Shown here: positions 3,086-57,928 of the stretch, in pieces | How the letters are laid out: each line of letters opens with the position of its first letter | Numbering within the stretch: position 1 is the first letter of the stretch | NCBI GenBank assembly: GCA_023246755.1 | Contig: JAHFHU010000003.1 | Location: 3,854 to 67,853, forward strand | DNA length: 64,000 bases | Direction: 5' to 3' | Origin: Candidatus Magasanikiibacteriota bacterium | GTDB lineage: Bacteria; Patescibacteriota; Patescibacteriia; Magasanikbacterales; 2-02-FULL-50-9b | Translations under genes and position numbers: made by a program | The notes under the pieces: model-generated | Told to the model about the DNA's origin: nothing | Databases searched by the model: none | What the model saw: only the letters and a program-made list of their open reading frames with translations

Positions 3086-3892
3086 ATGAAACCGCGGCTG
3101 CTGTTATTGACCAATACGGACAACAGCAGCCCGGAGGAGGATAAATATCTCGCGGATTTTCTGCGAGATATTTTTGATGTGACGCGCGTGCATCCGCGCG
3201 ATGCGGGCGAATTTGAGGATGTGGCTGATTTGATTTTGGTGCGGAATATTTGGCCGACAGAAACGCAGTTGCCGGAATTGCACGCGATGTATGCGCGGTT
3301 CGCGCGGAAAAATTTGTGTGTGTACAATCCATTTATTGGGCACGGGGATATGCAGGGTAAAAAATATTTGCCTGAATTGTGGCGGTTGGGGTATCCGGTG
3401 ATTCCGTCGGTTGAGCGGGTGAGTGAGTTGGGCGCGTTGCCGTTGACCGAAAATTTTATGGTGAAGCCGCTATTTGGGGGGAGTAGTTTTGGCGTGAAAA
3501 AAATTGCGCGATCGAAACTTGAGGCGATGCCATTGACCGATCACATCATTCAGCCATTTTTGCAAATCGAAAAAGAAATTTCATTTTATTTTATCGACAA
3601 CGAGTTACAGCATGTTCTTGCGACGCGCGGCGACCGATGGAATCTCCAGTTTTACGACGCAACAGACGAACAAAAAATGATCGCGCAGAATTTTGTCCAG
3701 TGGAACTCGCTTCCGCGTGGAATTCAGCGCATCGATTTTGCGTTGACCTTTGATGGCGAATTTTTGCTCATGGAGATTGAGGATTGGTGCCCTTTTTTAT
3801 CGTTGCGGGGGCTTGATGCAGCGCGGTCAGCCTTGTTTTTTGAGGCCATTAGGGGCGCTCTTTTGCGCGCGATTTTTTTTGCAAATGATTAA
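3086..3892 (+). CDS. ATP-grasp domain protein (RimK-like ligase fold)
   Basis: MVKPLFGGSSFGVKKI matches the ATP-grasp vvKP..gs.G.gv motif. Rest of the protein has weak similarity. Confidence 0.45.
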   Translation: MKPRLLLLTNTDNSSPEEDKYLADFLRDIFDVTRVHPRDAGEFEDVADLILVRNIWPTETQLPELHAMYARFARKNLCVYNPFIGHGDMQGKKYLPELWRLGYPVIPSVERVSELGALPLTENFMVKPLFGGSSFGVKKIARSKLEAMPLTDHIIQPFLQIEKEISFYFIDNELQHVLATRGDRWNLQFYDATDEQKMIAQNFVQWNSLPRGIQRIDFALTFDGEFLLMEIEDWCPFLSLRGLDAARSALFFEAIRGALLRAIFFAND

Positions 3893-4493
3893 TATGTTTT
3901 GTGATCCAGATGATGATGAGAAGAAAAAAAAGATAAATTATGATGCCATAAAATGTTCGATGGTTTGTTTGTGCGGGTGGCGCGTGTATGCGAGCGGCTT
4001 GCGTTGGGATTGTTGATTTTTGGTTAGTAATTTCTTTGTGTAGTTGGGTTGTTGATAAACGCCATGTTTTATCCTTGAGTGCCAAAACAGACCCCGGTTT
4101 TGTTTGGAGTCCGATACGGACACCGTGTGTTGTGAGTGTGATAGCCGGGTCGTCCGTCGTGGGAATATAAACACGCATGAGCAAATTTGGTGTAGACCCC
4201 TTTTTTGGCTGTGCGTGGGGTATCATTCCAAGGAATGATACATATTTTGTTTGATTAGTTTTTGTGCCAAGTATGGTGAGTGGCGCGTGCGGCCACACGC
4301 GCGCGATTGAGTGCGCAACATCAATATATTTTGGTGAAATTAGCGTATCAAAAATTATAGAGCCTTCAAATGCATTGACCTGGGTTGATGGTGAAAGAAA
4401 AATATCGATATAAAATTCATCAGTTCGACCAGCATCGCTACCAAGTTTAAAATCTATTTGTGGTGTTATAAATTGTGATGCCATATATATCAC
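3849..4493 (-). CDS. hypothetical protein
   Basis: Long ORF that starts 4 nt inside the upstream minus-strand ORF; no recognisable motifs. Confidence 0.35.
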   Translation of the reverse strand: MIYMASQFITPQIDFKLGSDAGRTDEFYIDIFLSPSTQVNAFEGSIIFDTLISPKYIDVAHSIARVWPHAPLTILGTKTNQTKYVSFLGMIPHAQPKKGSTPNLLMRVYIPTTDDPAITLTTHGVRIGLQTKPGSVLALKDKTWRLSTTQLHKEITNQKSTIPTQAARIHAPPAQTNHRTFYGIIIYLFFLLIIIWITKHINHLQKKSRAKERP

Positions 4494-5089
4494 TCACCCC
4501 AATAATACGAAAGAATTGAAAAATCAACGAGATCGACCATCTTATCTTTGTTGAGGTCTGTCGGGTGTGTCGGCTGCGTGGTTTCATATGCGGCTACCAT
4601 TGCTTGGTATAAATCAAACATTGCGGCGTTGTATCCGGCGCTATCACCTGTCGGGCTGATGAGCGTCGTGACAAATGGACGGAATGAAAAAGATCCCTCG
4701 ATAAATCCGGGCGTGCCAGCTGGGGGCTCGTTTATTTGGGGCGTCTGTGAAGCTGATGGCGTTGGTTTTGGTGGTGCAATGATTGCGGGCGATTGATCGC
4801 TGGGAAGCGTAATGAGTGGCTGCCCCGATGGGTTCGTTGGAATAATTGTTGGAGTCGTAGCAGGTGGTTCAACATACGATGTATAACATCCGCTACACGC
4901 AATTGGATCTCGAGTGACCGCCACAGGTGCGGGAGCGGTTGGTGTTTCATCGTCAGTACTCGCGGTAACTTGAACACCAATTGTTAAAATGTTTGTGTCT
5001 GCTTGTACTGGCACGAGGTTAAAAAAAAATAGCACACCGGCACCTAATATCGAAATAAAAATTGTTTTATTTCCCGATTGATTTTTCAT
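4490..5089 (-). CDS. secreted Pro/Thr-rich protein with dockerin-like C-terminus
   Basis: N-terminal signal peptide (..FFFNLVPVQA), PT-rich linker, and a C-terminal DLNKDKMVDLVDFSIL calcium-binding-like repeat. Confidence 0.45.
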   Translation of the reverse strand: MKNQSGNKTIFISILGAGVLFFFNLVPVQADTNILTIGVQVTASTDDETPTAPAPVAVTRDPIACSGCYTSYVEPPATTPTIIPTNPSGQPLITLPSDQSPAIIAPPKPTPSASQTPQINEPPAGTPGFIEGSFSFRPFVTTLISPTGDSAGYNAAMFDLYQAMVAAYETTQPTHPTDLNKDKMVDLVDFSILSYYWGE

Positions 5090-5094
5090 GCAAA

Positions 5095-5454
5095 TTATTT
5101 TTGTAATAAAATTGCCGCGGTTGTTACCGCGATAACAAGCAAGATTCCCAGTAAAAATAGGATACGAATGCGGACATAAACTTTATGAAATTGTACCACA
5201 GAAATTTCACAGACAATTTTTTTCTTTGAAAAATGTTCATTTGCACGATGAAAGCACTCGGGAAAGCTGTAGCGCATCACAAAAGGAATTGCACGCGGAT
5301 TTTTGCTTAACATAAAGCCGAGTATCAGCATCGAAACGAGAATACCGATTATGAATCCAATAAAAAGTGGGTCATTAAACAAATAAACAAATGTTAAAAA
5401 TGCAGCATGTACGTTTGCAGTTGCCGCGGAAGCGCTGTTGATAAAAAAATTCAT
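5095..5454 (-). CDS. hypothetical membrane protein
   Basis: Two to three hydrophobic helices; divergent from lepB. Confidence 0.35.
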   Translation of the reverse strand: MNFFINSASAATANVHAAFLTFVYLFNDPLFIGFIIGILVSMLILGFMLSKNPRAIPFVMRYSFPECFHRANEHFSKKKIVCEISVVQFHKVYVRIRILFLLGILLVIAVTTAAILLQK

Positions 5455-5477
5455 AAAGATCTGGTATAATAGGTGAA

Positions 5478-6017
5478 ATGAAACAAAGTATTCACATCTT
5501 CATTTCTTTTTTAGAAGACGGGTTAAAAACCTTCTTGATTATAGCACTTTGCTTGATTGGCGTAAAAGAGGTGATTGTTTCGGTTGATCAGGTAGTTGGA
5601 AACTCAATGGTTCCTAATTTTAAGAGTAGCCAACATTTTGTTGTTAATAAGATTGTGTATTATTTTCGTTCGCCAGCGCGCGGTGATGTTGTTCAAGCAA
5701 TTGAACCACAACATAAATCTTTTGTAATTAAGCGTGTTATTGGCATTCCGGGTGACGTCTTATTTACAAAGAACGGTGTTTTATACCGAGGATCAGCAAA
5801 CAACCCTCTGTCGTTTGCTGATGCACAGCGTGTTTTCGAGCCGTATTTGCCCGAGAGTTTTATAACAGATGTTAGAGGATCTACCGCTCAAACCATGTTT
5901 ATCGTGCCGCCGAACCATTATTTTTTGATTGGGGATAACCGATCGCATAGCACAGATTCTCGAGTATACGGACCGGTCTCGCGTATCTCAATTACGGGTT
6001 TTGTACAGGGTTTATAA
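5478..6017 (+). CDS. lepB: signal peptidase I
   Basis: S26 motifs: GNSMVPNF (catalytic Ser box), IKRVIGIPGD (Lys box) and GDNRSHSTDSRVYG. Confidence 0.8.
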   Translation: MKQSIHIFISFLEDGLKTFLIIALCLIGVKEVIVSVDQVVGNSMVPNFKSSQHFVVNKIVYYFRSPARGDVVQAIEPQHKSFVIKRVIGIPGDVLFTKNGVLYRGSANNPLSFADAQRVFEPYLPESFITDVRGSTAQTMFIVPPNHYFLIGDNRSHSTDSRVYGPVSRISITGFVQGL

Positions 6018-6969
6018 CACGCTCGTCCATTGCAGTGACAATAGTGTTTCCATTTGACTCAATCCGTGTATATTTTTGTAAAGCAAAATTAACAATCGTT
6101 GTTGCTCCGGTTGATGATTTGAATAGGGCTATTTCTGGATCGATCCATTGAATTTTTTCAGCACGTAACGGAAATATCAAGCGCATGGATTTTTTCGCAT
6201 CGGTTTCTGATTTGTATGTCCAAAAGCCGAGCAAATGTTTTTTGATTTCATATTTTTGTTTGATTTTTGGCTGTTTGTCGGTCATTTCGGTGTTAGATTT
6301 GATTGCGGTAGCCTCGTCTGCGGTGAGTCTTGTTGGAGCATCTTTCCATGGATCGAACGCGAAACGTGTAATTGCACCACTCGAGTTTTTTGAAAATTCA
6401 ACAAGTGCTGTGTGGTTTTCTTTAAGATCCCACTCAGCATTTTCTGTTTTTGTGCCTGCTGGACGCATGAGCTTGTTTTCGAAGGGGATGCATGGCGCAT
6501 CTGTTGGAATTTCAGGAATAAATTCTCGAATACAATAACCAATTTTAGTTTTGTCTTTATCAAATGTTTTTAAAATTAGGTAACGCGCGTCTGGGCTTAA
6601 AGATGCGTCTGCAATCGAAATACGTTGCTTGATGCGCTGCCTGATCCCACCATTTGAAGAGATCGCCATGTACGTTGTTGAAGTTGCTGTCGAACGATTA
6701 TCGAAAGCTAAGGCGATGTTTTGGCGTAGATAAAGTAATGTAATTGAGCCATTGAGACGTATCGCATCTTCTTTGGTGAGTGGTTGAACAACGTATTCAT
6801 TGTGAATTTTATCGAGTTCGACGATGAGTTGCGGAATGAAGCCTGCGCCTACGATGTCGCGTGAACCAGATCTAAAGACTGCGAGATATGGTGCAGCGAG
6901 CAAATATAAGCAAAATACGAATATGCAAATTCCAAGGAAAATGCCGACAATAAGTGGTTTATTTTTCAT
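5992..6969 (-). CDS. hypothetical membrane-anchored protein
   Basis: N-terminal TM helix followed by a large extracytoplasmic domain; no motif recognised. Confidence 0.45.
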   Translation of the reverse strand: MKNKPLIVGIFLGICIFVFCLYLLAAPYLAVFRSGSRDIVGAGFIPQLIVELDKIHNEYVVQPLTKEDAIRLNGSITLLYLRQNIALAFDNRSTATSTTYMAISSNGGIRQRIKQRISIADASLSPDARYLILKTFDKDKTKIGYCIREFIPEIPTDAPCIPFENKLMRPAGTKTENAEWDLKENHTALVEFSKNSSGAITRFAFDPWKDAPTRLTADEATAIKSNTEMTDKQPKIKQKYEIKKHLLGFWTYKSETDAKKSMRLIFPLRAEKIQWIDPEIALFKSSTGATTIVNFALQKYTRIESNGNTIVTAMDERVINPVQNP

Positions 6970-6985
6970 ACGCCACCATCATACT

Positions 6986-7021
6986 ACAAAAAACCACCGC
7001 CGGAAAGGCGGTGGTTTTTTA
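6986..7021 (-). terminator. rho-independent terminator (bidirectional hairpin)
   Basis: ACCACCGCC-ggaaa-GGCGGTGGT perfect 9-bp stem flanked by an A-run and a T-run, immediately downstream of the 7039..8163 minus-strand gene. Coordinates approximate. Confidence 0.6.
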
Positions 7022-7038
7022 AACGAGCAACCTATGAC

Positions 7039-8163
7039 TTAGCTGAGGCCCGTTGTACCGACGAAGATCATGTAACCTGAACACGAACCACTGATACCGA
7101 GATTCGGCTTGAGTTTGAGATACAAACTTGAGCTTGGAACCGAGTTTGCAGCAGTCGCTGTCGCTGATGCGATGTTACCAGCACCCGATGAACCTGATGG
7201 GGTTGTTGATGGAACTGAGCTAGCTGAGAAGTAGGTAAACCCTGACGATGCAGTTGAGTAGCGGAGACGATATGTTGGGATATTACCAACGCTACAGGCC
7301 ATCGCGTAGTTTGGTGTTCCACTTCCGGTTGATGAGGCTGAAATGCGATAGTCGGAAGTTGTGTTTCCTGTGTTGTAAACAACGACAGTCTTTGCATCCG
7401 ATTCACTTTCAAGTTGAACGGAACCACCACTTTTTTGAAACGTGATCGATGATGCATCGAGCACAACTGCATTAAGTGATGCTACTTGGTATGCGTTAGA
7501 ATCAGTGGTAAATACTGAACCGGTAGTTGCATACGAAGCGCTTCTTAATCGAATCGCAAGTTTCCATGTGCTAACCGGAGTAGCATTGTACTTCATGTGA
7601 ATTTTACATGAGAATGTTTCCGATGTCGCAATGGAAGATGACTGCGATGAGTCCGAGAAATTACAATCAAGTCCTGATGTATCCATCTGCATTGAGTAGC
7701 AACCTTTTGATGCTGTTCCTCCGTTTAAACCTGTTGTTGGAGTACATGATCCATCCGTAAGGCCCGCGGTTGTTGAGGCAAAGTAATACACGAAGCGATC
7801 TGCACCTTCACTGTACCATTCTGAAATGGTGCTTGATGCATAAAGCGTACCGGTGAAGTAAATGTCTGTGCCGCCGGTTGCGCCACCGCTCGCGTCAGTT
7901 TCCGTTAGTGTAATGGTACCACCGTCTGAAAGTGGTGTTCCACACGCACCTGCCGACGCGTGGTTTGAACTATTGTCAAGACAAACTTTTAAGTTTGCGA
8001 GTGAAGGGGCTGTTGAAGAAACAGAAAGATTGCTATTGAGTGTGTTGCTGTCGTCAGCCTTGCTTTTTAAGTTGACAAAAACGAGAAGGATAAGAAGTCC
8101 GGCAATGCCGAGAAGTACGGCAAATATCCAGTGCGTTTTTGAATCCGAATATTCTTGATTCAT
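7039..8163 (-). CDS. secreted Ser/Thr/Gly-rich hypothetical protein
   Basis: N-terminal TM/signal (WIFAVLLGIAGLLILLVFV) and a low-complexity S/T-rich body. Confidence 0.5.
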   Translation of the reverse strand: MNQEYSDSKTHWIFAVLLGIAGLLILLVFVNLKSKADDSNTLNSNLSVSSTAPSLANLKVCLDNSSNHASAGACGTPLSDGGTITLTETDASGGATGGTDIYFTGTLYASSTISEWYSEGADRFVYYFASTTAGLTDGSCTPTTGLNGGTASKGCYSMQMDTSGLDCNFSDSSQSSSIATSETFSCKIHMKYNATPVSTWKLAIRLRSASYATTGSVFTTDSNAYQVASLNAVVLDASSITFQKSGGSVQLESESDAKTVVVYNTGNTTSDYRISASSTGSGTPNYAMACSVGNIPTYRLRYSTASSGFTYFSASSVPSTTPSGSSGAGNIASATATAANSVPSSSLYLKLKPNLGISGSCSGYMIFVGTTGLS

Positions 8164-8174
8164 AATTTATTAAT

Positions 8175-8474
8175 TTATTTGGTTACCTGAACCTGTGTTT
8201 TGAGAATTTTTGCCGACTCGTCAGGTGACGAACCGTCAGGATTTTTGATGTTGACCTTTGTTTTTAGTACATCAATTGGGCTTTGTGTGCCTTCAATCGT
8301 TCTAAAAATTGTTTTCGGAATTTGTGAAACCGTTGCTGCTGTTTCGTGGTTCGTTTTTGATAATCTCATCCCATACAGGACAATTCCTGTGATCAGGGCG
8401 AAGACGACCCAAACAACGCCGAGTGCTTCCGCGAATCGGGCAGCGTTATTACTTTGTGTTTGTTGCTGATACAT
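8175..8474 (-). CDS. small membrane protein
   Basis: 99 aa with one TM helix; sits in an operon-like arrangement with flanking secreted proteins. Confidence 0.4.
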   Translation of the reverse strand: MYQQQTQSNNAARFAEALGVVWVVFALITGIVLYGMRLSKTNHETAATVSQIPKTIFRTIEGTQSPIDVLKTKVNIKNPDGSSPDESAKILKTQVQVTK

Positions 8475-8514
8475 AGTTGTTAACGATTAATAAGGTTAGT
8501 TTATTTTTCGACGT

Positions 8515-9753
8515 TTATTTTTTTGCGCGTTTTTTAAGGACAACAGACGCAATTACTACGAGCAAGATAGCACCAAGCGCCATCCAAATTATTCGGACGA
8601 CCCCTGATGAACCAACTTGCAAGTCAAGTAATCGCTCTTCCGTTCGGTTAGGGCCGTAGTCAACAAAACCGCGAACTTTAAACTTCCCACCCTTTTTTGT
8701 TGTGTAGGTGAGTTTCAGGATCGCTTCGCGCGATTTTGTGATGATGATTTTTTCTGTGTGTATGGCGTCCACGATGTCTGTGCCATCTAAAATTTCGACG
8801 AAAAGCGTTGCGTCTACGGTTGAATCTCCGGCGTTGATAACTTTTGCTTCAATACGGACGGGTGTCCCGATCGTTTTTATTTCGTTCGATGATAATTCAA
8901 AAGTTTTGAGGGTGAGTTTTTGTGTCAATGTTCCGGGTGCAACAACGGTGAGGCCCGCTTTTTCGGTTTGACCGATCTGTTTTTCGTTGATGTAAAAATC
9001 AATTTGTGTTTTGTAACTGCCAACGGGTAGGCTCATTTCAACGGGAACGTTACGCTCACTGTTTGTGTCAGGCGCTACAGCCTCGACATTTTTGAGTGCA
9101 ACCGTTTTATTACTTATTACCGATTCTCCACTTGAGTTTATTACGGTGATAACTATTTTATTTGGAGCAATATCTATGTTGCCTAAGTTGTTAAATTGAA
9201 ATGTGAGTGGGGCAAATTCGTGCTCTGCTTGCTCAAAATCCGAGAATTGGACATGGCTGATCTTTCCTTCAATAATTTGCTCATCGCTGACGGTGAAGCT
9301 TATAAGCGTTTCTGCTCCAATTTGAAAGGCAGAGCCTGCTGTTGAATTTTTAAGAGCTCCTTTCGGTGGTTCCGTGCTCGGAATAAATGTTAAGTACGCT
9401 TTGTAAGATCCATTTGCAGCCGTTTTTGGAGCAATATAAAATTCAAATGGCATCGTTGTTTTTCCTTTTGGAAGTGTGTACGTTTTCTCAAATTTGAGAT
9501 ACGGGGCTCCATCGCCCGATGCCGTGACATTAAACACCTGATCATTTTCTGCATTCTGTCTTTGGACATTCACTGTCTTTTTTAATTCTGATGTTTTTAA
9601 AACACGTTCAGCAGTTATAATTCCCGGCGAGATGCCGAGTGCAAAAACTGGCTGCACTTCTGCGAGAGAAAAGAGAATGACGAATGTGAGCAGCGATCCG
9701 TTAAGTATTTTTTTCATAAATAGAACTGAAATTATAATAGCACATTCTCGCAA
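8515..9753 (-). CDS. secreted hypothetical protein with C-terminal TM anchor
   Basis: Signal peptide, beta-rich body, and a C-terminal hydrophobic helix followed by KKRAKK. Confidence 0.5.
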   Translation of the reverse strand: MRECAIIISVLFMKKILNGSLLTFVILFSLAEVQPVFALGISPGIITAERVLKTSELKKTVNVQRQNAENDQVFNVTASGDGAPYLKFEKTYTLPKGKTTMPFEFYIAPKTAANGSYKAYLTFIPSTEPPKGALKNSTAGSAFQIGAETLISFTVSDEQIIEGKISHVQFSDFEQAEHEFAPLTFQFNNLGNIDIAPNKIVITVINSSGESVISNKTVALKNVEAVAPDTNSERNVPVEMSLPVGSYKTQIDFYINEKQIGQTEKAGLTVVAPGTLTQKLTLKTFELSSNEIKTIGTPVRIEAKVINAGDSTVDATLFVEILDGTDIVDAIHTEKIIITKSREAILKLTYTTKKGGKFKVRGFVDYGPNRTEERLLDLQVGSSGVVRIIWMALGAILLVVIASVVLKKRAKK

Positions 9754-10180
9754 ATTTTTCCTGTGGATATGTTTTTTGAGATCAAATTTTTTTATGCGAT
9801 TTAATTATTTTAAAATTTTGAATCGTCATATCTCGAAGCTCGAAGGTGTCCCCTATGCAGAGGAGCTTTCTGCGCGAGTTGCTCACATCGGTGAAGATTC
9901 ACGCGCCGCGACACGCGAGCGTGAGGAATTGGCGTTGACGAGTAAGTGTACCCGTCTATGGCACCGCCTGATTTTGAGCGCGATCTTCGACCGTTCGGTA
10001 GTCTAGAATCGCTAACCGCCTTTGATTTGAAGGCGAAGTTTTAGCAGAATCATCGGGAGCAAAGTGCGCGTCATGGATACGTGGCACTTTTGTGAAGGCG
10101 TGTGATGTTGCGGTGGCACTCAACTTTTTTGTCGGCATGAACTTGATGCGGACGGAAAGGATTGGGTGCTTTTTTATCGC

Positions 10181-10234
10181 TACAAAAATGTTTAACAATT
10201 ACGCTCAAAATGTTTAACATTTTTGTATCACACA
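10181..10234. promoter_or_regulatory. conserved 54-bp motif copy 1 (two ATGTTTAACA(T) palindromic sites 21 bp apart)
   Basis: tacaaaaatgtttaacaatt-6nt-aaaatgtttaacatttttgtatcacaca. 48 of 54 nt identical to 57225..57278. Confidence 0.4.
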
Positions 10235-10391
10235 AAAAGAATGTTGCTGCCATCAGATGGGACTCGCCGACTCGCAAAGTGCTCGTCGGCCGGAGCAGTC
10301 GGAATGCGCCCCGCGCGTTTCTTGGTGCTCTTCTTGTCCCTTCCAGTCCGCCGGAAAAGAAAAAAGGCACCCAGCAGGGTGTCTTTTTTCA

Positions 10392-10468
10392 TGGCGGACT
10401 GGAAGGGACTCGAACCCTCGACCTTCCGCGTGACAGGCGGACGTTCTAACCAGCTGAACTACCAGTCC
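10392..10468 (-). tRNA. tRNA-Asp (anticodon GTC)
   Basis: Reverse complement folds as a canonical 77-nt cloverleaf: acceptor GGACTGG/CCAGTCC, anticodon loop CTGTCAC, T-loop GGTTCGAGTCC, encoded CCA. Confidence 0.85.
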
Positions 10469-10598
10469 AAAGTGAGGGATACAACGAGCGTTCACGCTCG
10501 GTTGTCTCCCGAACGCGGACTGGTAGTTACGAGCAGCATGGCTGCGAAGTAACTAAGTCCAAGCGAGCTAGTTAGTAATTCCTCAGTTTATTTTAAAT

Positions 10599-30797: not shown

Positions 30798-30881
30798 CAA
30801 AAATAACAACACGTTATATATTTTATTCACGCATCGCCGCTAGGCGTCCTCTCCTCCTCACAAGGGAGGAGAGTTTATTTT
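30793..30881 (+). promoter_or_regulatory. promoter (TTGACA-n17-TATATT) plus structured leader (HP1 CGCC-gcta-GGCG; HP2 CTCTCCTCC-n6-GGAGGAGAG followed by a U-tract) preceding the PemK-like gene
   Basis: Read from sequence. Architecture and hairpins are conserved with compensatory changes at 31583..31680. Confidence 0.4.
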
Positions 30882-30891
30882 TAAGGGGGGT

Positions 30892-31290
30892 ATGTATCAA
30901 AAAGATTTTGACCAATGGAGTAAAGTCAAAAAACAAATAAACGTTAAAAAAGTTCGAATCACTATTCGGTCAGGCGATGTTCGGTGGATTATTTTTGGCG
31001 TAAATGTTGCAAGTGAAATCGACGGTAAGGGGGATTTATTTTTACGACCGGCTTTGATACTTCATGTGATTGGTGCGGATCTCGCGCTTGTCGTTCCTCT
31101 AACTTCGAAGCAAAAAAATATTCCCGGATATATACCATTTGCATTGAAGAAAAAATTTTGTTCACTATGTCTCCACCAAATAAAAGTAGTTTCACAAAAT
31201 CGCATGTTGTATCGACTTGAGCATGTTGCAGATAGCAGAGTGTATGAAGTGCAAAGACACGTCATGGATTTTTACGGGTTTCATAGATAA
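30892..31290 (+). CDS. PemK/MazF-fold endoribonuclease toxin-like protein (orphan, copy 1)
   Basis: SGDVRWIIFGVNVASEIDGKGDLFLRPALIL...LVVPLTSKQK...HQIKVVSQNRMLYRLEHV matches Kid/PemK/MazF motifs (GD[IV]W, RPxLIL, PLTS). Confidence 0.65.
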   Translation: MYQKDFDQWSKVKKQINVKKVRITIRSGDVRWIIFGVNVASEIDGKGDLFLRPALILHVIGADLALVVPLTSKQKNIPGYIPFALKKKFCSLCLHQIKVVSQNRMLYRLEHVADSRVYEVQRHVMDFYGFHR

Positions 31291-31574: not shown

Positions 31575-31582
31575 CCACGGCT

Positions 31583-31680
31583 TGACAAAATTTTTGTTCC
31601 GTGGAATAGTGTAAATACATTTCGCCGTTAGGCGCCCGAGCCTCCTCCATCACGGGGGAGGTGCATACTTTTAAGGAGGG
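31583..31680 (+). promoter_or_regulatory. promoter (TTGACA-n17-AATAGT) plus structured leader (HP1 CGCC-gtta-GGCG; HP2 CCTCCTCC-n5-GGGGGAGG followed by a U-tract) preceding PemK-like copy 2
   Basis: Paralogous to 30793..30881. Stems are conserved by covariation rather than by sequence identity. Confidence 0.4.
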
Positions 31681-31682
31681 GT

Positions 31683-32558
31683 ATGTATCAAAAAAATTTT
31701 GAGCAGTGGAATTTAATTAAGCAGCAGATAAATTATGAAAACCGTTCAGTACGAATTCGTGCGGGCGATGTTTGTTGGATTTTTGTTGGTGTAAATGTTG
31801 GGAGTGAAATTGATGGTAAGGGCGAATCTTTTCTTCGCCCAGCTTTGATTTTGAATGTTATGGGTGATGATTTGGTTCTAATCATTCCTCTCACGTCAAA
31901 ACAAAAACAATTACCGCGCTACATTCCACTCGAAATTCAAGATCGTACGAGCTTTTTATGTCTTCATCAATTAAAGGTAGTTTCTCAAAATCGTATTTTA
32001 CGTCGTATCGAGCATATTTCTGACTCGCGTCTCGCCTCCGTTCGTCATAACGTGCTATTATTCCACAACTTCACACCGACGCCTAAACCAAAACCTATGG
32101 CTCACATTCACGAACTCATCGATTTCACCGTGTCTTGCATGATTCTTCATCCAACCGAACCAAAAATTTTGTTAATTAATCACAAAATACTCAACACATG
32201 GCTGCCAATTGGTGGGCACATCGAACTCAATGAAGATCCGGACGAAGCGATCGCACGCGAAGTCGCTGAAGAGTGTGGTCTTCCGATCGAAATGATTTCG
32301 CGACGTCACTCCGGCGAATATCCGGAAACTAAAATGTTGCTCATCCCTGAAACTGTTGACATCCACACGATCAACACCGCGCACCGCCACATCAATTTCG
32401 GCTACCACGCACGTGCGCTCAGCGCAAACCCAAAACTTGCGCCCGAGGAGCATCACGATATTCAATGGTTCGGTGCAGACGAACTTGCCGACCCGAATTT
32501 TAACATCAAGCCCGCGGTCCGCGTCTACGCACTTGAATTTTTGCAAAAAAATGCGTAA
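31683..32558 (+). CDS. PemK/MazF-fold toxin-like domain fused to a C-terminal NUDIX hydrolase domain
   Basis: Residues 1-125 are paralogous to 30892..31290 (about 60 % identity). After a PTPKPKP linker comes the Nudix box GGHIELNEDPDEAIAREVAEECGL (GX5EX7REUXEEXGU). Confidence 0.6.
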   Translation: MYQKNFEQWNLIKQQINYENRSVRIRAGDVCWIFVGVNVGSEIDGKGESFLRPALILNVMGDDLVLIIPLTSKQKQLPRYIPLEIQDRTSFLCLHQLKVVSQNRILRRIEHISDSRLASVRHNVLLFHNFTPTPKPKPMAHIHELIDFTVSCMILHPTEPKILLINHKILNTWLPIGGHIELNEDPDEAIAREVAEECGLPIEMISRRHSGEYPETKMLLIPETVDIHTINTAHRHINFGYHARALSANPKLAPEEHHDIQWFGADELADPNFNIKPAVRVYALEFLQKNA

Positions 32559-35527: not shown

Positions 35528-35661
35528 CGAATGGATGGGGAGGCGTGGCTCCCATATCGTTGAGGATTTTTATGCACCGGTTTTCCACCATTGACAAAAT
35601 TTTTGATTCGTGGAACCCAGTAGTTTGTACGTCGCGCTGCGGCGGATAAATTTTAAGATCT

Positions 35662-37655: not shown

Positions 37656-38117
37656 ATGAGCAAGGAGGGGGTTGTTTTTGATTTTTCGTATAGAAAAAGC
37701 GGAGAAGTTACACCCGCAAAAGCGTTGGCATATCGAATCGATCCGGTTACGCGTCGGATTATTGAAGTGATCAAGCCTCGAACACATGAGTTTGAAAATA
37801 TTTTGCGTGCAACAGTCAAAGCGTTGCTCAAACAGAATAAAAAATTTCCAACAAATAAAGATGTCTTTGTTTTAATTGAGCATGGTTTGCACGCCACACA
37901 CGATTTTGAAGAGTGTGATGTGGACAATCGAGCAAAAACAATTTTGGACGCGCTTAAAAATGCTGTGTACCAAGATGACAAGCAAGTTTCAGTTTTGTGG
38001 ACGTGTAAAAAATTTTTGCGTTCCCAGCAAGAAAGTTATTTTACTATTTCAATCTGCATTTTGAATGTTGTAAAACGTCAGCAGATTATGCGAATGATGA
38101 AGTGTGTCGATGTTTAA
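37656..38117 (+). CDS. RusA-like Holliday junction resolvase (phage-type endodeoxyribonuclease)
   Basis: ECDVDNRAKTILDALKNAVYQDDKQV matches the RusA D-x-DN...K..DAL...DD-x-V catalytic motif. Confidence 0.5.
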   Translation: MSKEGVVFDFSYRKSGEVTPAKALAYRIDPVTRRIIEVIKPRTHEFENILRATVKALLKQNKKFPTNKDVFVLIEHGLHATHDFEECDVDNRAKTILDALKNAVYQDDKQVSVLWTCKKFLRSQQESYFTISICILNVVKRQQIMRMMKCVDV

Positions 38118-38323
38118 CATTTTTTTGTTTTTGTGTTCTGTGAGCGAGACTGCGCAGGCGTTGCGGACCGCCTTTTGATAATTTTGTTTTTTCTTTTGTG
38201 AAAGAGACTGCGCACAAGCATCATCGCGCAAATTTATTTTGCGCTTGGATGATGCGCGGAGGAACAAACGAAGATTTGCATGTGGCAATTCAAGAGGTCT
38301 CTTGAACAAAAGAAAAAACCAAA

Positions 38324-38727
38324 TGGTGGAGATGCCGGGAATTGAACCCGGGTCGAAGAAAAAGGTCGCCCTCGGCCTACGTGTGTAGTCCGGTTAATTT
38401 TTACCTATGCGCGTCCATCAATCGGACGAAAAATACGCACACAGGAACTGTGTTGGTTTCGGTAACGTGCGCGACAGATAGCGCGCGACGAGACCTACAT
38501 TACTGTTTTATAACACCGCGCATCGGACCGTAATCGTCCGACGTCGATGGCATTACGTTCTTAGGCGAATGCTGGAACAAAAGTTGGTGCGAATGCGTTA
38601 GCAACCGCGGCTTTTGCACGTGCAAAAATATTTGCATCTGGGTTTTGCCCCGCGTTTTAACGAGAAACGAGACATTCCCGACACGCCCGTTCGAGTCTTC
38701 TTTCTCTCCTCGAAGCCTGTCATCCCC
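38324..38727 (-). ncRNA. ssrA: tmRNA (transfer-messenger RNA)
   Basis: Minus-strand 5' GGGGAUGACAGGCUUCGAGGAG... pairs with 3' ...GGGUUCAAUUCCCGGCAUCUCCACCA (tRNA-like domain, encoded CCA). Internal tag reading frame ...GCU AAC GCA UUC GCA CCA ACU UUU GUU CCA GCA UUC GCC UAA. smpB lies adjacent. Ends approximate. Confidence 0.8.
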
Positions 38728-53703: not shown

Positions 53704-54886
53704 TTTTTTTCGTGATGTCGGCGGGGTCGAGCGCGTTTTTTTTGCCGAGCGCGAATTATTGATGCAACACGGTCACACGGTGATTGATTTTTCAACGACG
53801 CACGCGGCGAATTATCCGTCGAATTACGCGCGCTATTTTGTGAGCGCGGTGGATTTTCATGCGCGCGGGGACTGGTTTAAAAAAGCGGCGCGATTTTTTT
53901 ATTCGCGCGAAGTTGCGACGCAGCTCGATCGATTAATTTCGGAAATCGCGCCGGATGTTGCGCACGTGCATGGAATTTTTGATGTGCTCGGGCCAACGGT
54001 TTTGCGCGTGCTGAAAAAACGTGGCGTGCGGATTGTGTTTACGGCGCACGCGTATAAACTGGTGTGTCCGAGCGGCCGATTATTTTCGCGCGGCGCAATT
54101 GACGAGTCGTGTCGGCGTAATCTTTTGAATGACGCACTCCATCGCGGTGTGCAAAATTCGTTGGTGAAAAGTTTGTGGGCCGTGTTGGCGCTCGGGTGGC
54201 ACCGCTCGCGGCGAACGTTTGAGCTGTTTGACCGCATCATAGCGCCGAGTCAATTTTTGATTCACAAACATGTCGAGTTTGGTTTTGATGCGCGGCGTTT
54301 TGTGCACATTCCGAATCCGGTTGATGTGACAAAATTTTCGGTGTCTAAATGTGCCGGCGCGTACGTGCTGTTCGTCGGGCGATTGGTTCCGGAAAAAGGT
54401 GTTGCTGTGTTGATCGCAGCTGCGGCGCGACTTCCGGAGATCGAATTTAAAATTGTGGGCGACGGGCCGGAGCGCGCGCGGCTTGAAAATTTAGTGGTTG
54501 AAAAAAAATTGAAAAATATTTCGTTTGACGGGCACCGCGCGCCGCGTGATGTGCAAACATACGTTGCGAACGCAGCTGCAGTTGTCGTTCCGTCGGTTTG
54601 TTTTGAAAATGATCCGTATTCCGTGCTCGAAGCGCAGGCGCAGGGGAGCGTCGTCATCGCGTCATATACCGGCGGCATCCCTGAGCAGATTCGGCATGGC
54701 GAAACCGGGTTTTTATTTGAGCAAGGGAACGCAGCGGCGCTCGCGGAGGCGCTTGCGCGGGTGTGGGCGATGACGCCGCATGAGCGCGCCGCGATTGGCA
54801 CGCAGGCACGGGCGTTTGTGGATATCGTTCGCGCGCCGGAGCTCTATTATGAGGCGATTATGGACGTTTTTGGATCAACAAAGTAG
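53681..54886 (+). CDS. GT4 family glycosyltransferase
   Basis: Start at MRILLINNFF; C-terminal DPYSVLEAQAQGSVVIASYTGGIPE. Confidence 0.7.
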   Translation: MRILLINNFFRDVGGVERVFFAERELLMQHGHTVIDFSTTHAANYPSNYARYFVSAVDFHARGDWFKKAARFFYSREVATQLDRLISEIAPDVAHVHGIFDVLGPTVLRVLKKRGVRIVFTAHAYKLVCPSGRLFSRGAIDESCRRNLLNDALHRGVQNSLVKSLWAVLALGWHRSRRTFELFDRIIAPSQFLIHKHVEFGFDARRFVHIPNPVDVTKFSVSKCAGAYVLFVGRLVPEKGVAVLIAAAARLPEIEFKIVGDGPERARLENLVVEKKLKNISFDGHRAPRDVQTYVANAAAVVVPSVCFENDPYSVLEAQAQGSVVIASYTGGIPEQIRHGETGFLFEQGNAAALAEALARVWAMTPHERAAIGTQARAFVDIVRAPELYYEAIMDVFGSTK

Positions 54887-54943: not shown

Positions 54944-56140
54944 ATGGTCAAAAAACCCTTACATATCGCATATATCGGCCAAAAAGGCGCTCCAGCACTC
55001 TGGGGCGGCGTTGAGCGTGCAACCGAAGAATTGGCGGTGCGGATGGCTGCGGCGGGGTATTTTGTCACCGTGTATTGTCGCACCTGGTACGCAAAACATC
55101 AGCCACTTTTTTATCGCAATGTGCGGCTCAAATACGTGCCGAGCGTTCATACGAAGTATTTGGACGCGATTACCCACACTTTTTTTTCGGTGGTCAACGC
55201 GATGTGGAATGGTGTCGATGTCATTCATTTTCAAGGTATCGGACCGGCGCTTCTCGCGTGGATTCCGCGCATGTTTGCGCCGCATACCCGTGTGCTCGTG
55301 ACGTTTCATTGTTTGGATCGTAAATTGCAGAAATGGAACTGGTTTGCCCGTCTCATGTTTTATGTGGGCGAGTACGTTGCGATTTCGTGCAGCCATGAAA
55401 TGTTTGTGACGTCGCGCGCGCTTGAACAGTATGTTTTGCACACGTGGAATCATCGCGCGACCTATTTGCCCAACGGCGCGTTTGAACGTACTATCGCGTT
55501 TGATTCAACGGAAGATATTCGCGCGTTTGGTTTGACGCCGCATCGCTACGTGGTGTGCGTCGGGCGTTTGATGCGCGATAAAGCGCAACACGAAGTGATC
55601 GCGGCGTTTGTGCGCGCGAAAGAACGTTTGGATGATGCGTCGTGTGCAGATTTAAAATTAGTTATTGTTGGCGATAGTGCGGATGCGCACGATTCGTATC
55701 GCGCATATTTGAATGAGCAAATTGCGGGCCGCGACGACGTGGTATTTTTGGGTGTGCAAACGGGTTCGATTTTGAAATCGCTCATCAAGCATGCGCGGGT
55801 GGGTGTGTCGTTGTCGTATTCGGAAGGCATGCCGCTTGCGGTTTTGGAAATGGCGTCGTATGGCGTTCCGCTCGTTGTTTCTGATATTACGGCGCATCGC
55901 GAAATTTTTGGTGACGATCATGCATTTATTGAGGTTGGAAATGTTGAGCGTGCGGCCGTGCAGCTTGCGCGGCTCGTGAAAAATTTTGATGAGATTCGGG
56001 TGATCGCTGCGATCATCGCGGAACGAATTGCTGCGCGATATTGTTGGGACATTATTGTCGCGCGGTATTGTGTGTCCATTGTTTCCGTTCAAACTGAGTT
56101 TGAGCGCGAACACGTTGTTTTACAAGCGCGGTTGGTCTAA
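54944..56140 (+). CDS. GT4 family glycosyltransferase
   Basis: EGMPLAVLEMASYGVPLVVSDITAHREIF. Confidence 0.7.
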   Translation: MVKKPLHIAYIGQKGAPALWGGVERATEELAVRMAAAGYFVTVYCRTWYAKHQPLFYRNVRLKYVPSVHTKYLDAITHTFFSVVNAMWNGVDVIHFQGIGPALLAWIPRMFAPHTRVLVTFHCLDRKLQKWNWFARLMFYVGEYVAISCSHEMFVTSRALEQYVLHTWNHRATYLPNGAFERTIAFDSTEDIRAFGLTPHRYVVCVGRLMRDKAQHEVIAAFVRAKERLDDASCADLKLVIVGDSADAHDSYRAYLNEQIAGRDDVVFLGVQTGSILKSLIKHARVGVSLSYSEGMPLAVLEMASYGVPLVVSDITAHREIFGDDHAFIEVGNVERAAVQLARLVKNFDEIRVIAAIIAERIAARYCWDIIVARYCVSIVSVQTEFEREHVVLQARLV

Positions 56141-57166
56141 ACTTTTTGTGTCCACCGTGATGGTCGCGCGAGAAAATTCTCGCTGCCACACGCCCGGGGA
56201 AATTTCGATTGGTGCGCCGCGTGGTGCGCCAATTTTTTGTTCGTATGCGGGATACCACCACAGCGAGGCGTGGTTGGTGTCGCCAAAATCATAGGCGAAA
56301 TATGCGTCGAAGAGGAGTGCACTATTGAGACCGAGTCGCATCGTTGTTTCGGATTGATTTTCTGTGTTATTGCGCGCGGTCGCGTTGAAAATAATGATCG
56401 GATTTTTGGTGTGCGTTGCATGGAATTCTCGCGCGCGTGCGACCGTCTCGGCCCATCCGTGATCTGGAAAATTTTCGAACACAACGCCATCGAGCGCGTC
56501 AAATTGTGTGCTACCGTTGCCGATGATAATTTTTTTGGGCCCCGCGGCGCGTAGATCGTTGATGAGCTGTTTTGTCGCGTCGCTCCATGCGGCGTTGGCG
56601 GCGTCGGGCACGTCAGTTTTTTGATCGTCGTCGAGATCAACATCGCCAACGTACCATGTCACGCCATCCCACACATTATCGAGCATGACACCATCCCAAA
56701 CCGGATTGGCGAAAATTTTTTTCTTGATAAATGTCGTGAGCAGCGCGCGCCACGGGCCGGTTAGATTCATGAGATGTGCGTTCGGCCAAAAATAAACCGC
56801 GTCGCCGTTTGCGCGATGAACATAGAATTGTTCGGGCGCGTGGGCAAGGAGCGCGTTTCGGAGCGGCGCTTCCTGCTCGAGCTCGTCGGTCGGTATGTGG
56901 AGTTCGGATGTTGAAACGTAAGCTAGAATTTTTATGCCGGGATGCAGCGCGCGCATTTTTTTGATGAGTTTTGGTTGACGCGCGCCAACTTCCGCATCGA
57001 GCACGACGAGATCCCAGCGCGCCAATTTTTGTGCGTCAGCCGCCGTAATTTTCCACGATAAAAATAAATTTGCCGTGCGCGGATGTTGTTGTGCCGTTGT
57101 TGTGGCCGCCGCAACGGGGGTGGGCGTGGTCACGAGCAATAAAAAAACAAAAAATAAAAATTTCAT
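56120..57166 (-). CDS. secreted putative glycoside hydrolase (GH114/TM1410-like)
   Basis: Signal peptide and a TIM-barrel-like pattern (DLVVLDAE, ILAYVSTSE); weak. Confidence 0.35.
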   Translation of the reverse strand: MKFLFFVFLLLVTTPTPVAAATTTAQQHPRTANLFLSWKITAADAQKLARWDLVVLDAEVGARQPKLIKKMRALHPGIKILAYVSTSELHIPTDELEQEAPLRNALLAHAPEQFYVHRANGDAVYFWPNAHLMNLTGPWRALLTTFIKKKIFANPVWDGVMLDNVWDGVTWYVGDVDLDDDQKTDVPDAANAAWSDATKQLINDLRAAGPKKIIIGNGSTQFDALDGVVFENFPDHGWAETVARAREFHATHTKNPIIIFNATARNNTENQSETTMRLGLNSALLFDAYFAYDFGDTNHASLWWYPAYEQKIGAPRGAPIEISPGVWQREFSRATITVDTKSLDQPRL

Positions 57167-57224
57167 GATACAAGTCTGTTTAGAATTTCAATGGGAAGAT
57201 TTGAGACAGGCTCTAAGTGGTGGG

Positions 57225-57278
57225 TACAAAAATGTTTAACAATTCAGGTCAAAATGTTTAACATTTTTGTATCACACA
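57225..57278. promoter_or_regulatory. conserved 54-bp motif copy 2 (two ATGTTTAACA(T) palindromic sites)
   Basis: Near-identical to 10181..10234. Lies ~60 bp upstream of the 56120..57166 start and 43 bp downstream of the HTH gene. Confidence 0.4.
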
Positions 57279-57320
57279 TTTTAGTACTCATCCGCGCGCC
57301 CAAATAGGCTCTGGGGTTTA

Positions 57321-57770
57321 TTATAGCGGAAGTGTTGAGTTTTGGCGCGTGTTCGATTTGGGTGCGCGCTTATTGGGAGGTTCTGGTGTGGTCGGTTTGA
57401 TTTCAATTCGATCTTCGGGTCGCACCATAAATAAATTCATATTTTGGCCTGCCACGGGTTCCGCTGGTTGAATAATATGAGGGTTTGGGGCGTAAATTTT
57501 GTTGCGAATTTTCCATTGGTCAACGAATTGTCCGATGCCGCGCGACTCCATTTTATTGTTAATGGTGGCATGACCCTGCGACCAGGTTAAGAGGCTTTCG
57601 AAGCTGATTTTGTAGCGTCCCTGCACGATTACATAGGACAACTCCTCGCGTTTAATGGCGCGGCGTATTGTTTGCGCATTGACGCCGAAAAGCTTTGCTG
57701 CTTCAGAAATCGAAACTCGGATAATTTCATCAAGTGCCATAGTGAAAAAAGTGTACAACAATCTATACAA
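57321..57770 (-). CDS. helix-turn-helix DNA-binding protein (excisionase/MerR-like HTH family)
   Basis: N-terminal IRVSISEAAKLFGVNAQTIRRAIKREEL HTH; divergent from the ECF sigma gene. Confidence 0.55.
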   Translation of the reverse strand: MYRLLYTFFTMALDEIIRVSISEAAKLFGVNAQTIRRAIKREELSYVIVQGRYKISFESLLTWSQGHATINNKMESRGIGQFVDQWKIRNKIYAPNPHIIQPAEPVAGQNMNLFMVRPEDRIEIKPTTPEPPNKRAPKSNTRQNSTLPL

Positions 57771-57928
57771 ATAGTCAAAAATAGGGGGTTATCTGGACGT
57801 GTGGTGCGGTTGACAAAAAAGCATGAATATCGTATAATTTCTCCTATATTTGGCCTCGTATGGCCACCCCCTAATTCTGCGGTGCAGACCCGAGTTGTAA
57901 CACTTTGGTTTCTGCAACGTCATATTAA

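Follow-up and report, generated by a model that had tools for sequence, protein, structure and literature searches.

Nature and layout of the repeated unit

A short sequence that recurs almost unchanged at two places 47 kb apart in a patescibacterial chromosome raises the question of what it is: an operator, the promoter of an RNA, or a piece of DNA that arrived by insertion. Patescibacteria have genomes of roughly 1 Mb and cannot yet be manipulated genetically, and to our knowledge their regulatory sites and mobile elements are almost undescribed. The reading preferred here, at a probability of roughly 0.4, is that a small family of inserted, non-autonomous elements of MITE-like type has this sequence as its conserved terminal module. 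A discrete unit in a group-fixed gene junction would show how reduced genomes gain DNA and perhaps regulation, and the 54-mer is a concrete substrate with which protein binding and promoter activity can be assayed; should the unit be no more than the decaying end of a MITE, it is ordinary.

A repeat search of the window (the whole 64-kb stretch of DNA that was analysed) returned a direct repeat of 54 nt, with both copies in the same orientation and 51 of 54 positions identical (blastn E 1.7e-17; nhmmer E about 1e-14):

10181-10234, plus strand: copy 1 of the unit, TACAAAAATGTTTAACAATT-ACGCTC-AAAATGTTTAACATTTTTGTATCACACA (repeat search, blastn, nhmmer)
57225-57278, plus strand: copy 2 of the unit, with the spacer CAGGTC (repeat search, nhmmer)

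The description given in the initial annotation, a 54-bp motif at two distant loci made of 20 identical, 6 variable and 28 identical nucleotides, is exact. All three mismatches lie inside the 6-nt spacer (ACGCTC in copy 1, CAGGTC in copy 2), so that 3 of 6 positions differ there against 0 of 48 outside it (hypergeometric p = 8e-4). Because the arms are identical and the spacer has diverged, the arms are probably still under constraint. The flanks of the two copies resemble each other no more than shuffled sequence does, and the edges of the unit are sharp. The presence of 48 identical bases with sharp edges at two non-homologous loci implies a copy-and-paste event under any model. Copy 2 is identical in two further assemblies of the same species (L001, L002). 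A coding function was rejected, as the open reading frames that cross the motif differ between copy 1 and copy 2. No extra degenerate copies were found in the window by nhmmer with models of the unit and of the arm.

Each copy had been described as carrying two ATGTT-T-AACAT palindromes with centres 26 bp apart. The second palindrome is indeed a perfect ATGTTTAACAT, the first, ATGTTTAACAA, contains one mismatch, and the spacing is different: the centres in copy 1 lie at 10193 and 10215, 22 bp apart, so that both face the same side of the helix. A better description of the sites is that of palindromes of 15-17 bp, AAAATGTT-T-AACATTTT, site 2 being perfect over 17 bp and site 1 imperfect. The proposed architecture of a dimeric operator pair is thus present in form, as two 17-bp-type palindromes 22 bp apart from centre to centre. 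A 17-mer scan of the window on both strands, allowing up to 3 mismatches, gave 9 matches at five sites against 0.85 expected, including the following:

10185-10201 (copy 2 equivalent 57229-57245): site 1 of copy 1, imperfect 17-bp palindrome AAAATGTTTAACAATTA
10207-10223 (copy 2 equivalent 57251-57267): site 2 of copy 1, perfect 17-bp palindrome AAAATGTTTAACATTTT
38107-38123, plus strand: solitary third site, an exact match to the unit over the 15-mer ATGTTTAACATTTTT

The third site overlaps the stop codon of a RusA-like open reading frame and lies about 200 bp from the 3' end of tmRNA.

As a whole, the unit also forms a 20-7-20 inverted repeat with an asymmetric TCACACA tail after it, which stands on one side only in both copies. 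This layout, with variation confined to the centre, recalls a dif- or lox-type site for a site-specific recombinase, in which inverted arms would surround a 6-7-bp crossover region and the different spacers would block deletion of the intervening 47 kb. In addition, compared by eye, the arms share ATGTTAAA with the XerD arm of E. coli dif. This origin is nevertheless improbable: the arms measure 20 bp against the 11-13 bp of dif, Xer and lox sites, GC skew stays positive across both copies without a switch, there are two copies and a fragment rather than one, the inner TTAT/ATAA positions typical of dif are unmatched, the TCACACA tail is left unaccounted for, and no recombinase was found in the window. 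A chromosomal dif site, for which a single copy with an 11-6-11 core at the GC-skew switch would be expected, was rejected specifically, as the unit is neither single-copy nor at such a switch. An integron attC site was also rejected: the GTTTAAC boxes occupy mid-arm positions, the hairpin is predicted to be free of bulges, and the searches gave no integrase.

Genomic setting between and around the copies

By the homologues of its HTH_17 protein, the window belongs to Candidatus Magasanikbacteria, within Patescibacteria. The 47 kb between the copies includes the core genes rplT, infC, pyrF, smpB and tmRNA, and the copies are therefore not the ends of an island, as had been argued from the start. 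The interval also holds a low-GC defence island (about 16-38 kb) with Fic, type I restriction-modification, NYN, MazF and RusA genes. No genes for recombinases, transposases, Xre-type proteins or Phd-type proteins were found in the 64-kb window, and no integrase was found for the defence island beside tmRNA. A search for att-like duplicates of the tmRNA and tRNA-Asp 3' ends gave nothing beyond the genes themselves and an inverted tRNA-Asp fragment. No RusA relatives were present in viral contigs.

Several smaller repeats were observed in this interval. The solitary palindrome at 38107-38123 is followed by a 34-nt direct repeat (38123-38156, 38182-38214), and a 28-nt inverted repeat (38181-38208 vs 38297-38324), which encloses another hairpin, lies downstream of the tmRNA 3' end and adjoins the gene. 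Near-identical promoter-like segments of 25 nt, TTGACAAAATTTTTG..., precede different toxin-type genes at 31582-31606 and 35591-35615, and the 5' ends of the two MazF-like genes are duplicates (30878-30950 and 31669-31741). This is promoter reuse within the defence island.

Copy 2 in the HTH_17-GHL15 junction

Copy 2 lies between two genes of the minus strand:

57321-57740, minus strand: gene for an HTH_17 protein (Xis/BldC-like winged helix), 139 aa (homologues, predicted structure)
56120-57166, minus strand: gene for a secreted protein of the GHL15 family (domain search, alignment of relatives)
57167-57320, intergenic: 154-bp region between the HTH_17 and GHL15 genes, containing copy 2 (comparison with six related species)

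The HTH gene had been drawn as 57321..57770; its start is most likely 57740, which gives 139 aa. The distances estimated for the two copies, about 160 bp from tRNA-Asp and about 60 bp from a secreted hydrolase, agree with the measured ones: copy 1 is 157 nt from the tRNA-Asp 3' end (10392), and copy 2 is 58 nt from the GHL15 start codon (57164-57166) and 42 nt from the HTH_17 stop codon.

The HTH_17 locus was compared in six related species, not strains (L037, L040, L041/L042, L043, L053 and L054). All six keep the same gene order, with an ECF sigma gene on one strand and HTH_17 followed by GHL15 on the other. From the HTH_17 stop to the GHL15 start there are 7-17 bp in 6/6 of these species and 154 bp in the window, and ATGTTNAACA is absent within 10 kb of the HTH_17 loci of the six relatives (up to 20 kb looked at). 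Because the junction in the relatives is this short and lacks the motif, copy 2 lies in lineage-specific inserted DNA. By this comparison, about 140 bp of the 154-bp gap, with copy 2 inside it, is a lineage-specific insertion. Since GHL15 can be aligned right from the start of its N-terminus, the extra DNA is non-coding as well as lineage-specific. Removal of 57166-57278 in silico leaves ...AAA|ATGAAA..., an intact start-codon context as in the relatives.

The comparison also bears on the adjacent HTH_17 protein, which had been put forward as the possible binder of the motif. Such an operator would fit the position of copy 2, only 42 nt from the HTH_17 stop, and the winged helix-turn-helix of the protein; the motif can moreover be read as two 13-nt direct repeats, the type of site used by Xis/BldC-type proteins, a class that binds direct repeats head to tail (PMC5859096). 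The proposal is nevertheless very improbable. The HTH_17 gene, its promoter (TTGACT-17-TAGACT, conserved in the six relatives) and the gene order are all kept in species that lack the motif, which makes HTH_17 unlikely as a dedicated binder. The motif stands downstream of the gene, away from its promoter, and it is limited to one lineage, whereas the protein family is nearly universal in Patescibacteria (797 matches, with 60-70% identity over about 85 residues). The confident core of the protein (residues 8-57) is a predicted winged helix closest to Pukovnik Xis and BldC, and the BldC consensus AATT-N4-C (PMC5859096) has no match in the motif. In this setting the unit looks more like the end of an inserted element, or like a copied promoter or operator unit, than like a conserved HTH_17 operator.

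The neighbourhood shows further conserved features. Of the roughly 85 conserved HTH_17 residues, only the first 50 or so model as an Xis/BldC-like winged helix. The HTH_17 gene is always divergent from an ECF sigma/DUF5667 pair and directly upstream of GHL15 (57321-57928; loci L037-L055). The HTH_17/sigma intergenic region contains an invariant TTGTATA within the HTH_17 promoter; on the side of the sigma gene it has a TTGACA promoter of sigma-70 type and, conserved upstream of that gene, a TGTAACA...CGTC site of ECF type. The motif itself was considered as an ECF-sigma promoter and rejected, as it has no CGT at the right distance when compared with the TGTAACA...CGTC site of the neighbouring sigma gene.

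Copy 1 beside tRNA-Asp

Copy 1 stands between a terminator and a conserved structured module:

10110-10175, plus strand only: intrinsic terminator, a long G-U-rich hairpin followed by six U, ending 5 nt before copy 1
10258-10361, plus strand: structured module ending in an inverted copy of the tRNA-Asp 3' end (10339-10355); conserved, and present twice in L050
10363-10390: bidirectional terminator between the module and tRNA-Asp

Homology with the relative L050 ends at about 10258, 24 nt from the TCACACA end of copy 1, and the window DNA beyond this break is lineage-specific. In the loci fetched around rplT and tRNA-Asp, what the relatives share 3' of tRNA-Asp is the bidirectional terminator and an inverted copy of the last ~23 nt of tRNA-Asp. 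The ~100-nt module folds well on the plus strand (z -3.75), uses G-U pairs and shows 2-3 compensatory changes relative to L050.

The inverted copy of the last 15-23 nt of tRNA-Asp occurs in 3-4 species and tracks each species' own tRNA sequence (window 10331-10414; L050 452-587 and 1280-1470; L047 1135-1200; L045 1777-1850). In the window and in L050, it closes the ~100-nt module through an acceptor-like stem, GGACU/AGUCC. In L050, terminator, fragment and module are all present twice, as if they were cassette boundaries. The fragment and its module could be a tRNA-like small RNA or the relic of an old attachment site. In the leader upstream of tRNA-Asp there are one or two hairpins whose sequence repeats the tRNA 5' end (GGACTGGTAGTTA...TAACTAC), at 10470-10580 (minus strand) in the window, at 1520-1700 in L045 and at 250-375 in L050.

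On the other side of copy 1, the initial annotation had suggested that the motif might drive a minus-strand ncRNA in the gene-less stretch 9754-10180, possibly of the SRP or 6S type. The data speak against this. The terminator at 10110-10175 has a folding energy of -35.5 kcal/mol (z -9.3) for the plus strand versus -14.5 for the minus strand, and since a terminator acting on the plus strand only stands at the end of the stretch, the motif is not its minus-strand promoter. The promoter-like site found there, TTTTCA-16-TATAAT at 9711-9738, is also on the plus strand, and no minus-strand promoter was found by scan or by eye. Among the Rfam covariance models only tRNA and tmRNA reached threshold, and nothing credible appeared in 9754-10180 at E up to 5. 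The sole plausible open reading frame of the stretch (9794-10006, 70 aa) returned only itself in a homologue search.

Positions 9711-10175 of the plus strand have the look of an unannotated transcription unit of ~430 nt, whose body is strongly structured (z -3.1) and whose terminator is strand-specific. Next to it, 3849-9717 of the minus strand is a run of orphan genes for secreted or membrane proteins; a signal-peptidase-like gene (5478-6017) lies opposite, on the plus strand. Among 5.8 billion proteins, the 400-aa first gene product of this run matches only itself.

Inverted-repeat partners and the possible end of an inserted element

From its TCACACA side, the unit reads TGTGTGA-TACAAAAATGTTAAACATTT. 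The 23-mer TGATACAAAAATGTTAAACATTT was compared at every window position on both strands (127,364 positions). The best four matches, each 17/23, were a low-complexity A-run at 54499, the third site at 38108, and the plus-strand positions 57166 and 8467. The last two are in left-end orientation, each to the left of a motif copy:

57166-57188, plus strand: candidate left terminal inverted repeat (TIR) of a 109-bp insertion at 57166-57274, TGATACAAGTCTGTTTAGAATTT; 23 nt, 74% complementary to 57252-57274
8467-8488, plus strand: weaker candidate left end, TGATACATAGTTGTTAACGATT, of a 1764-bp segment at 8467-10230; 22 nt, 77% against 10209-10230

The pattern TGATACA-N4-TGTT occurs four times, in two convergent pairs, against 0.03 expected; as it was chosen after the sites had been seen, these statistics are inflated, and the unbiased test is the ranking of the 23-mer. 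The ends of the candidate 109-bp element read 5'-TG...CA-3', the left one lying directly against the GHL15 start codon. CA stands on both sides of the element, without amounting to a convincing target-site duplication. The 109-bp segment covers most of the inserted DNA and leaves about 30-40 nt outside the explanation; a partial further arm was found at 57276-57290 in the inverted-repeat search. At 8467-10230, with GC on one side against CA on the other, there is no target-site duplication.

Two features expected of MITEs were found, namely imperfect TIRs and, for copy 2, an empty site in the relatives. The TIR evidence around copy 2 favours a mobile-element origin, the very outcome that the initial annotation had named as contrary to its operator proposal. 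The end of a MITE-like element is ranked first because the insertion into a fixed junction, the inverted-repeat partners and the TG...CA tips occur together.

As the end of such an element, the unit read from the TCACACA side would consist of a 5'-TG tip followed by two opposed arms of ~20 bp, each with a palindrome of 15-17 bp. The palindromes would serve as sites for a dimeric DNA-binding protein encoded outside the window, the simplest candidate being the transposase of the element. Copy 2 would be the well-kept end of the 109-bp insertion (57166-57274), which would have gone in precisely between the stop of HTH_17 and the start of GHL15. Copy 1 would be an end of the same type, bordering lineage-specific DNA next to the variable region of tRNA-Asp, and may pair with 8467-8488, while 38107-38123 would be a decayed fragment of the unit. 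The constraint on the arms could reflect transposition competence in source lineages, or a secondary use by the host as a weak rightward promoter or as the binding site of another protein.

The unit resembles known MITE and TIR elements with TG...CA ends (IS3, IS21, Mu and Tn7 classes) in being a short insertion in a conserved gene junction, with imperfect TIRs, TG...CA tips, sharp edges and subterminal repeats that look like binding sites, and in being confined to one lineage. It differs from them in its 2-3 copies in the window, in left ends that are far more decayed than the right ends, in copies that share one end module only, and in the lack of a clear target-site duplication and of a cognate transposase among the genes found. 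Several observations count against the MITE-like reading. No more than two full copies and a single fragment were seen in the 64 kb; no homologous copy turned up in the public collections searched, and no transposase or recombinase in the window; the candidate left ends agree at only 65%, whereas the right ends are identical; the remainder of the 109-bp insert is not common to copy 1; and the 400-aa gene within 8467-10230 looks like the native first gene of the minus-strand surface-protein operon. An internal palindrome in each arm is also a feature more usual in repressor operators than in transposase sites. About 70 kb of DNA from the relatives showed no REP- or MITE-like families.

Operator, promoter and hairpin alternatives

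The palindromes also lie over a promoter-like sequence:

10192-10220, plus strand: weak sigma-70-like match TTAACA-17-TAACAT (9/12), predicted start near 10227 (promoter scan, at threshold)

The same match occurs in copy 2 at 57236-57264, with a start near 57271, and this sole promoter-like match inside the motif points rightward. The main rival reading, a tentative but appreciable possibility, is a host regulatory cassette, in which tandem 17-bp operators of a dimeric repressor overlie a rightward sigma-70-type promoter. At copy 1 the cassette would drive a ~160-nt structured RNA resembling tRNA-Asp (10258-10390). At copy 2 either transcription from it would run antisense into HTH_17, or the cassette would be a roadblock separating HTH_17 from GHL15. 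The geometry of the palindromes and their 22-bp phasing suit an operator pair over -35 and -10 hexamers, and the promoter-like match is present in both copies. Relative to that promoter, the conserved block reaches from roughly -46 to +8, and the only bases that vary lie in the promoter spacer. Divergence restricted to the spacer is also consistent with long-term selection on the arms, and copy 1 fills a slot between a plus-strand terminator on one side and a conserved module with its own terminator on the other.

Against the cassette, the promoter match barely reaches the scan threshold, no regulator gene stands beside either copy, and no Xre- or Phd-like homologues are encoded in the window. 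No open reading frame lies downstream in the direction of the promoter, and at copy 2 nothing obvious is available for rightward transcription. A promoter-like site was not found in the equivalent slot of L050, and the motif is absent from all orthologous loci fetched. The features of an operator pair were thus found in part: the phased palindromes over -35/-10 are present, while a nearby regulator or regulated gene and conservation at orthologous loci are not. A cassette of this kind would still need copy-and-paste to place 48 identical bases at two non-homologous loci.

The similarity to phage-type operators was considered in this context. As in lambda OR1-OR2/PR, two 17-bp palindromes lie just over two helical turns apart on -35-like and -10-like hexamers. 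In unrelated genomes, ATGTTTAACAT pairs spaced 21-23 bp apart occur beside CI/Cro-, HTH_26- and Phd-like genes. Specifically, the pair in the viral contig L034 lies between divergent HTH_3 (CI/Cro-like) genes and flanks a TTGACA hexamer, the pair in L031 is 87 bp from an HTH_26 gene, and the pair in L008 stands directly before a Phd/YefM-like gene. These operator-like settings indicate that the twin-11-mer architecture serves as an operator elsewhere; the counterpoint is that the same 11-mer also occurs in many-copy tandem arrays in two Bacteroidales MAGs. Unlike phage-type operators, the unit has no repressor gene nearby and no downstream coding gene in the direction of its promoter, and its two copies are 47 kb apart in direct orientation in the core chromosome.

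The end of a MITE-like element and a host operator cassette are not exclusive, as an element end can be co-opted. A combined version, in which a mobile operator-promoter cassette was copied into two loci, next to a conserved small RNA at one and splitting the HTH_17-GHL15 operon at the other, is unlikely. If true, a mobile cassette drives a small RNA that mimics the 3' end of tRNA-Asp and has brought a surface glycan hydrolase under new regulation, by a repressor whose gene lies elsewhere.

Least probable is a role at the RNA level, in which the 20-bp AU-rich stem would act as a REP-like signal for transcript processing, stability or termination. Folding predicts a hairpin on either strand (z about -4 to -5), and copy 2 lies inside the presumed HTH_17-GHL15 co-transcript. 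Neither strand has a U-tract after the stem, however, and the palindrome within each arm is superfluous for a hairpin. On each strand, one copy stands directly behind a strong terminator or has no upstream promoter, which makes a function at the DNA level more likely than one at the RNA level. The likeness to REP and REPIN sequences lies in the extragenic palindromic doublet with each half palindromic, the spacer that varies more than the arms, the short conserved flank on one side (TCACACA) and the position of the copies 3' of genes. The unit differs from them in being AT-rich, in its very short 7-nt spacer, in having a flank motif on one side only and in its apparently low copy number, and no RAYT gene is present in the window.

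Searches of public collections for further copies

Pattern scans covered genome, viral and metagenome contigs, and BLAST covered phages and plasmids. The twin-site unit had no homologous copy in any of 185,579 species genomes, in JGI metagenomes, in IMG/VR or in the phage and plasmid records. As the scans returned not even the window's own copies, the source genome itself is absent from these collections. A literature search on the 11-mer and on motifs in Patescibacteria gave nothing relevant. The scan matches that were obtained are unrelated to the unit, being either operators beside small regulator genes or tandem 21-bp arrays in Bacteroidales. In the latter, AATGTTTAACAC-N10-AATGTTTAACA is part of a tandem 21-bp array that occurs at many loci of the Bacteroidales MAGs Phil12 and RUG093 (L003-L033) and is unrelated to the window.
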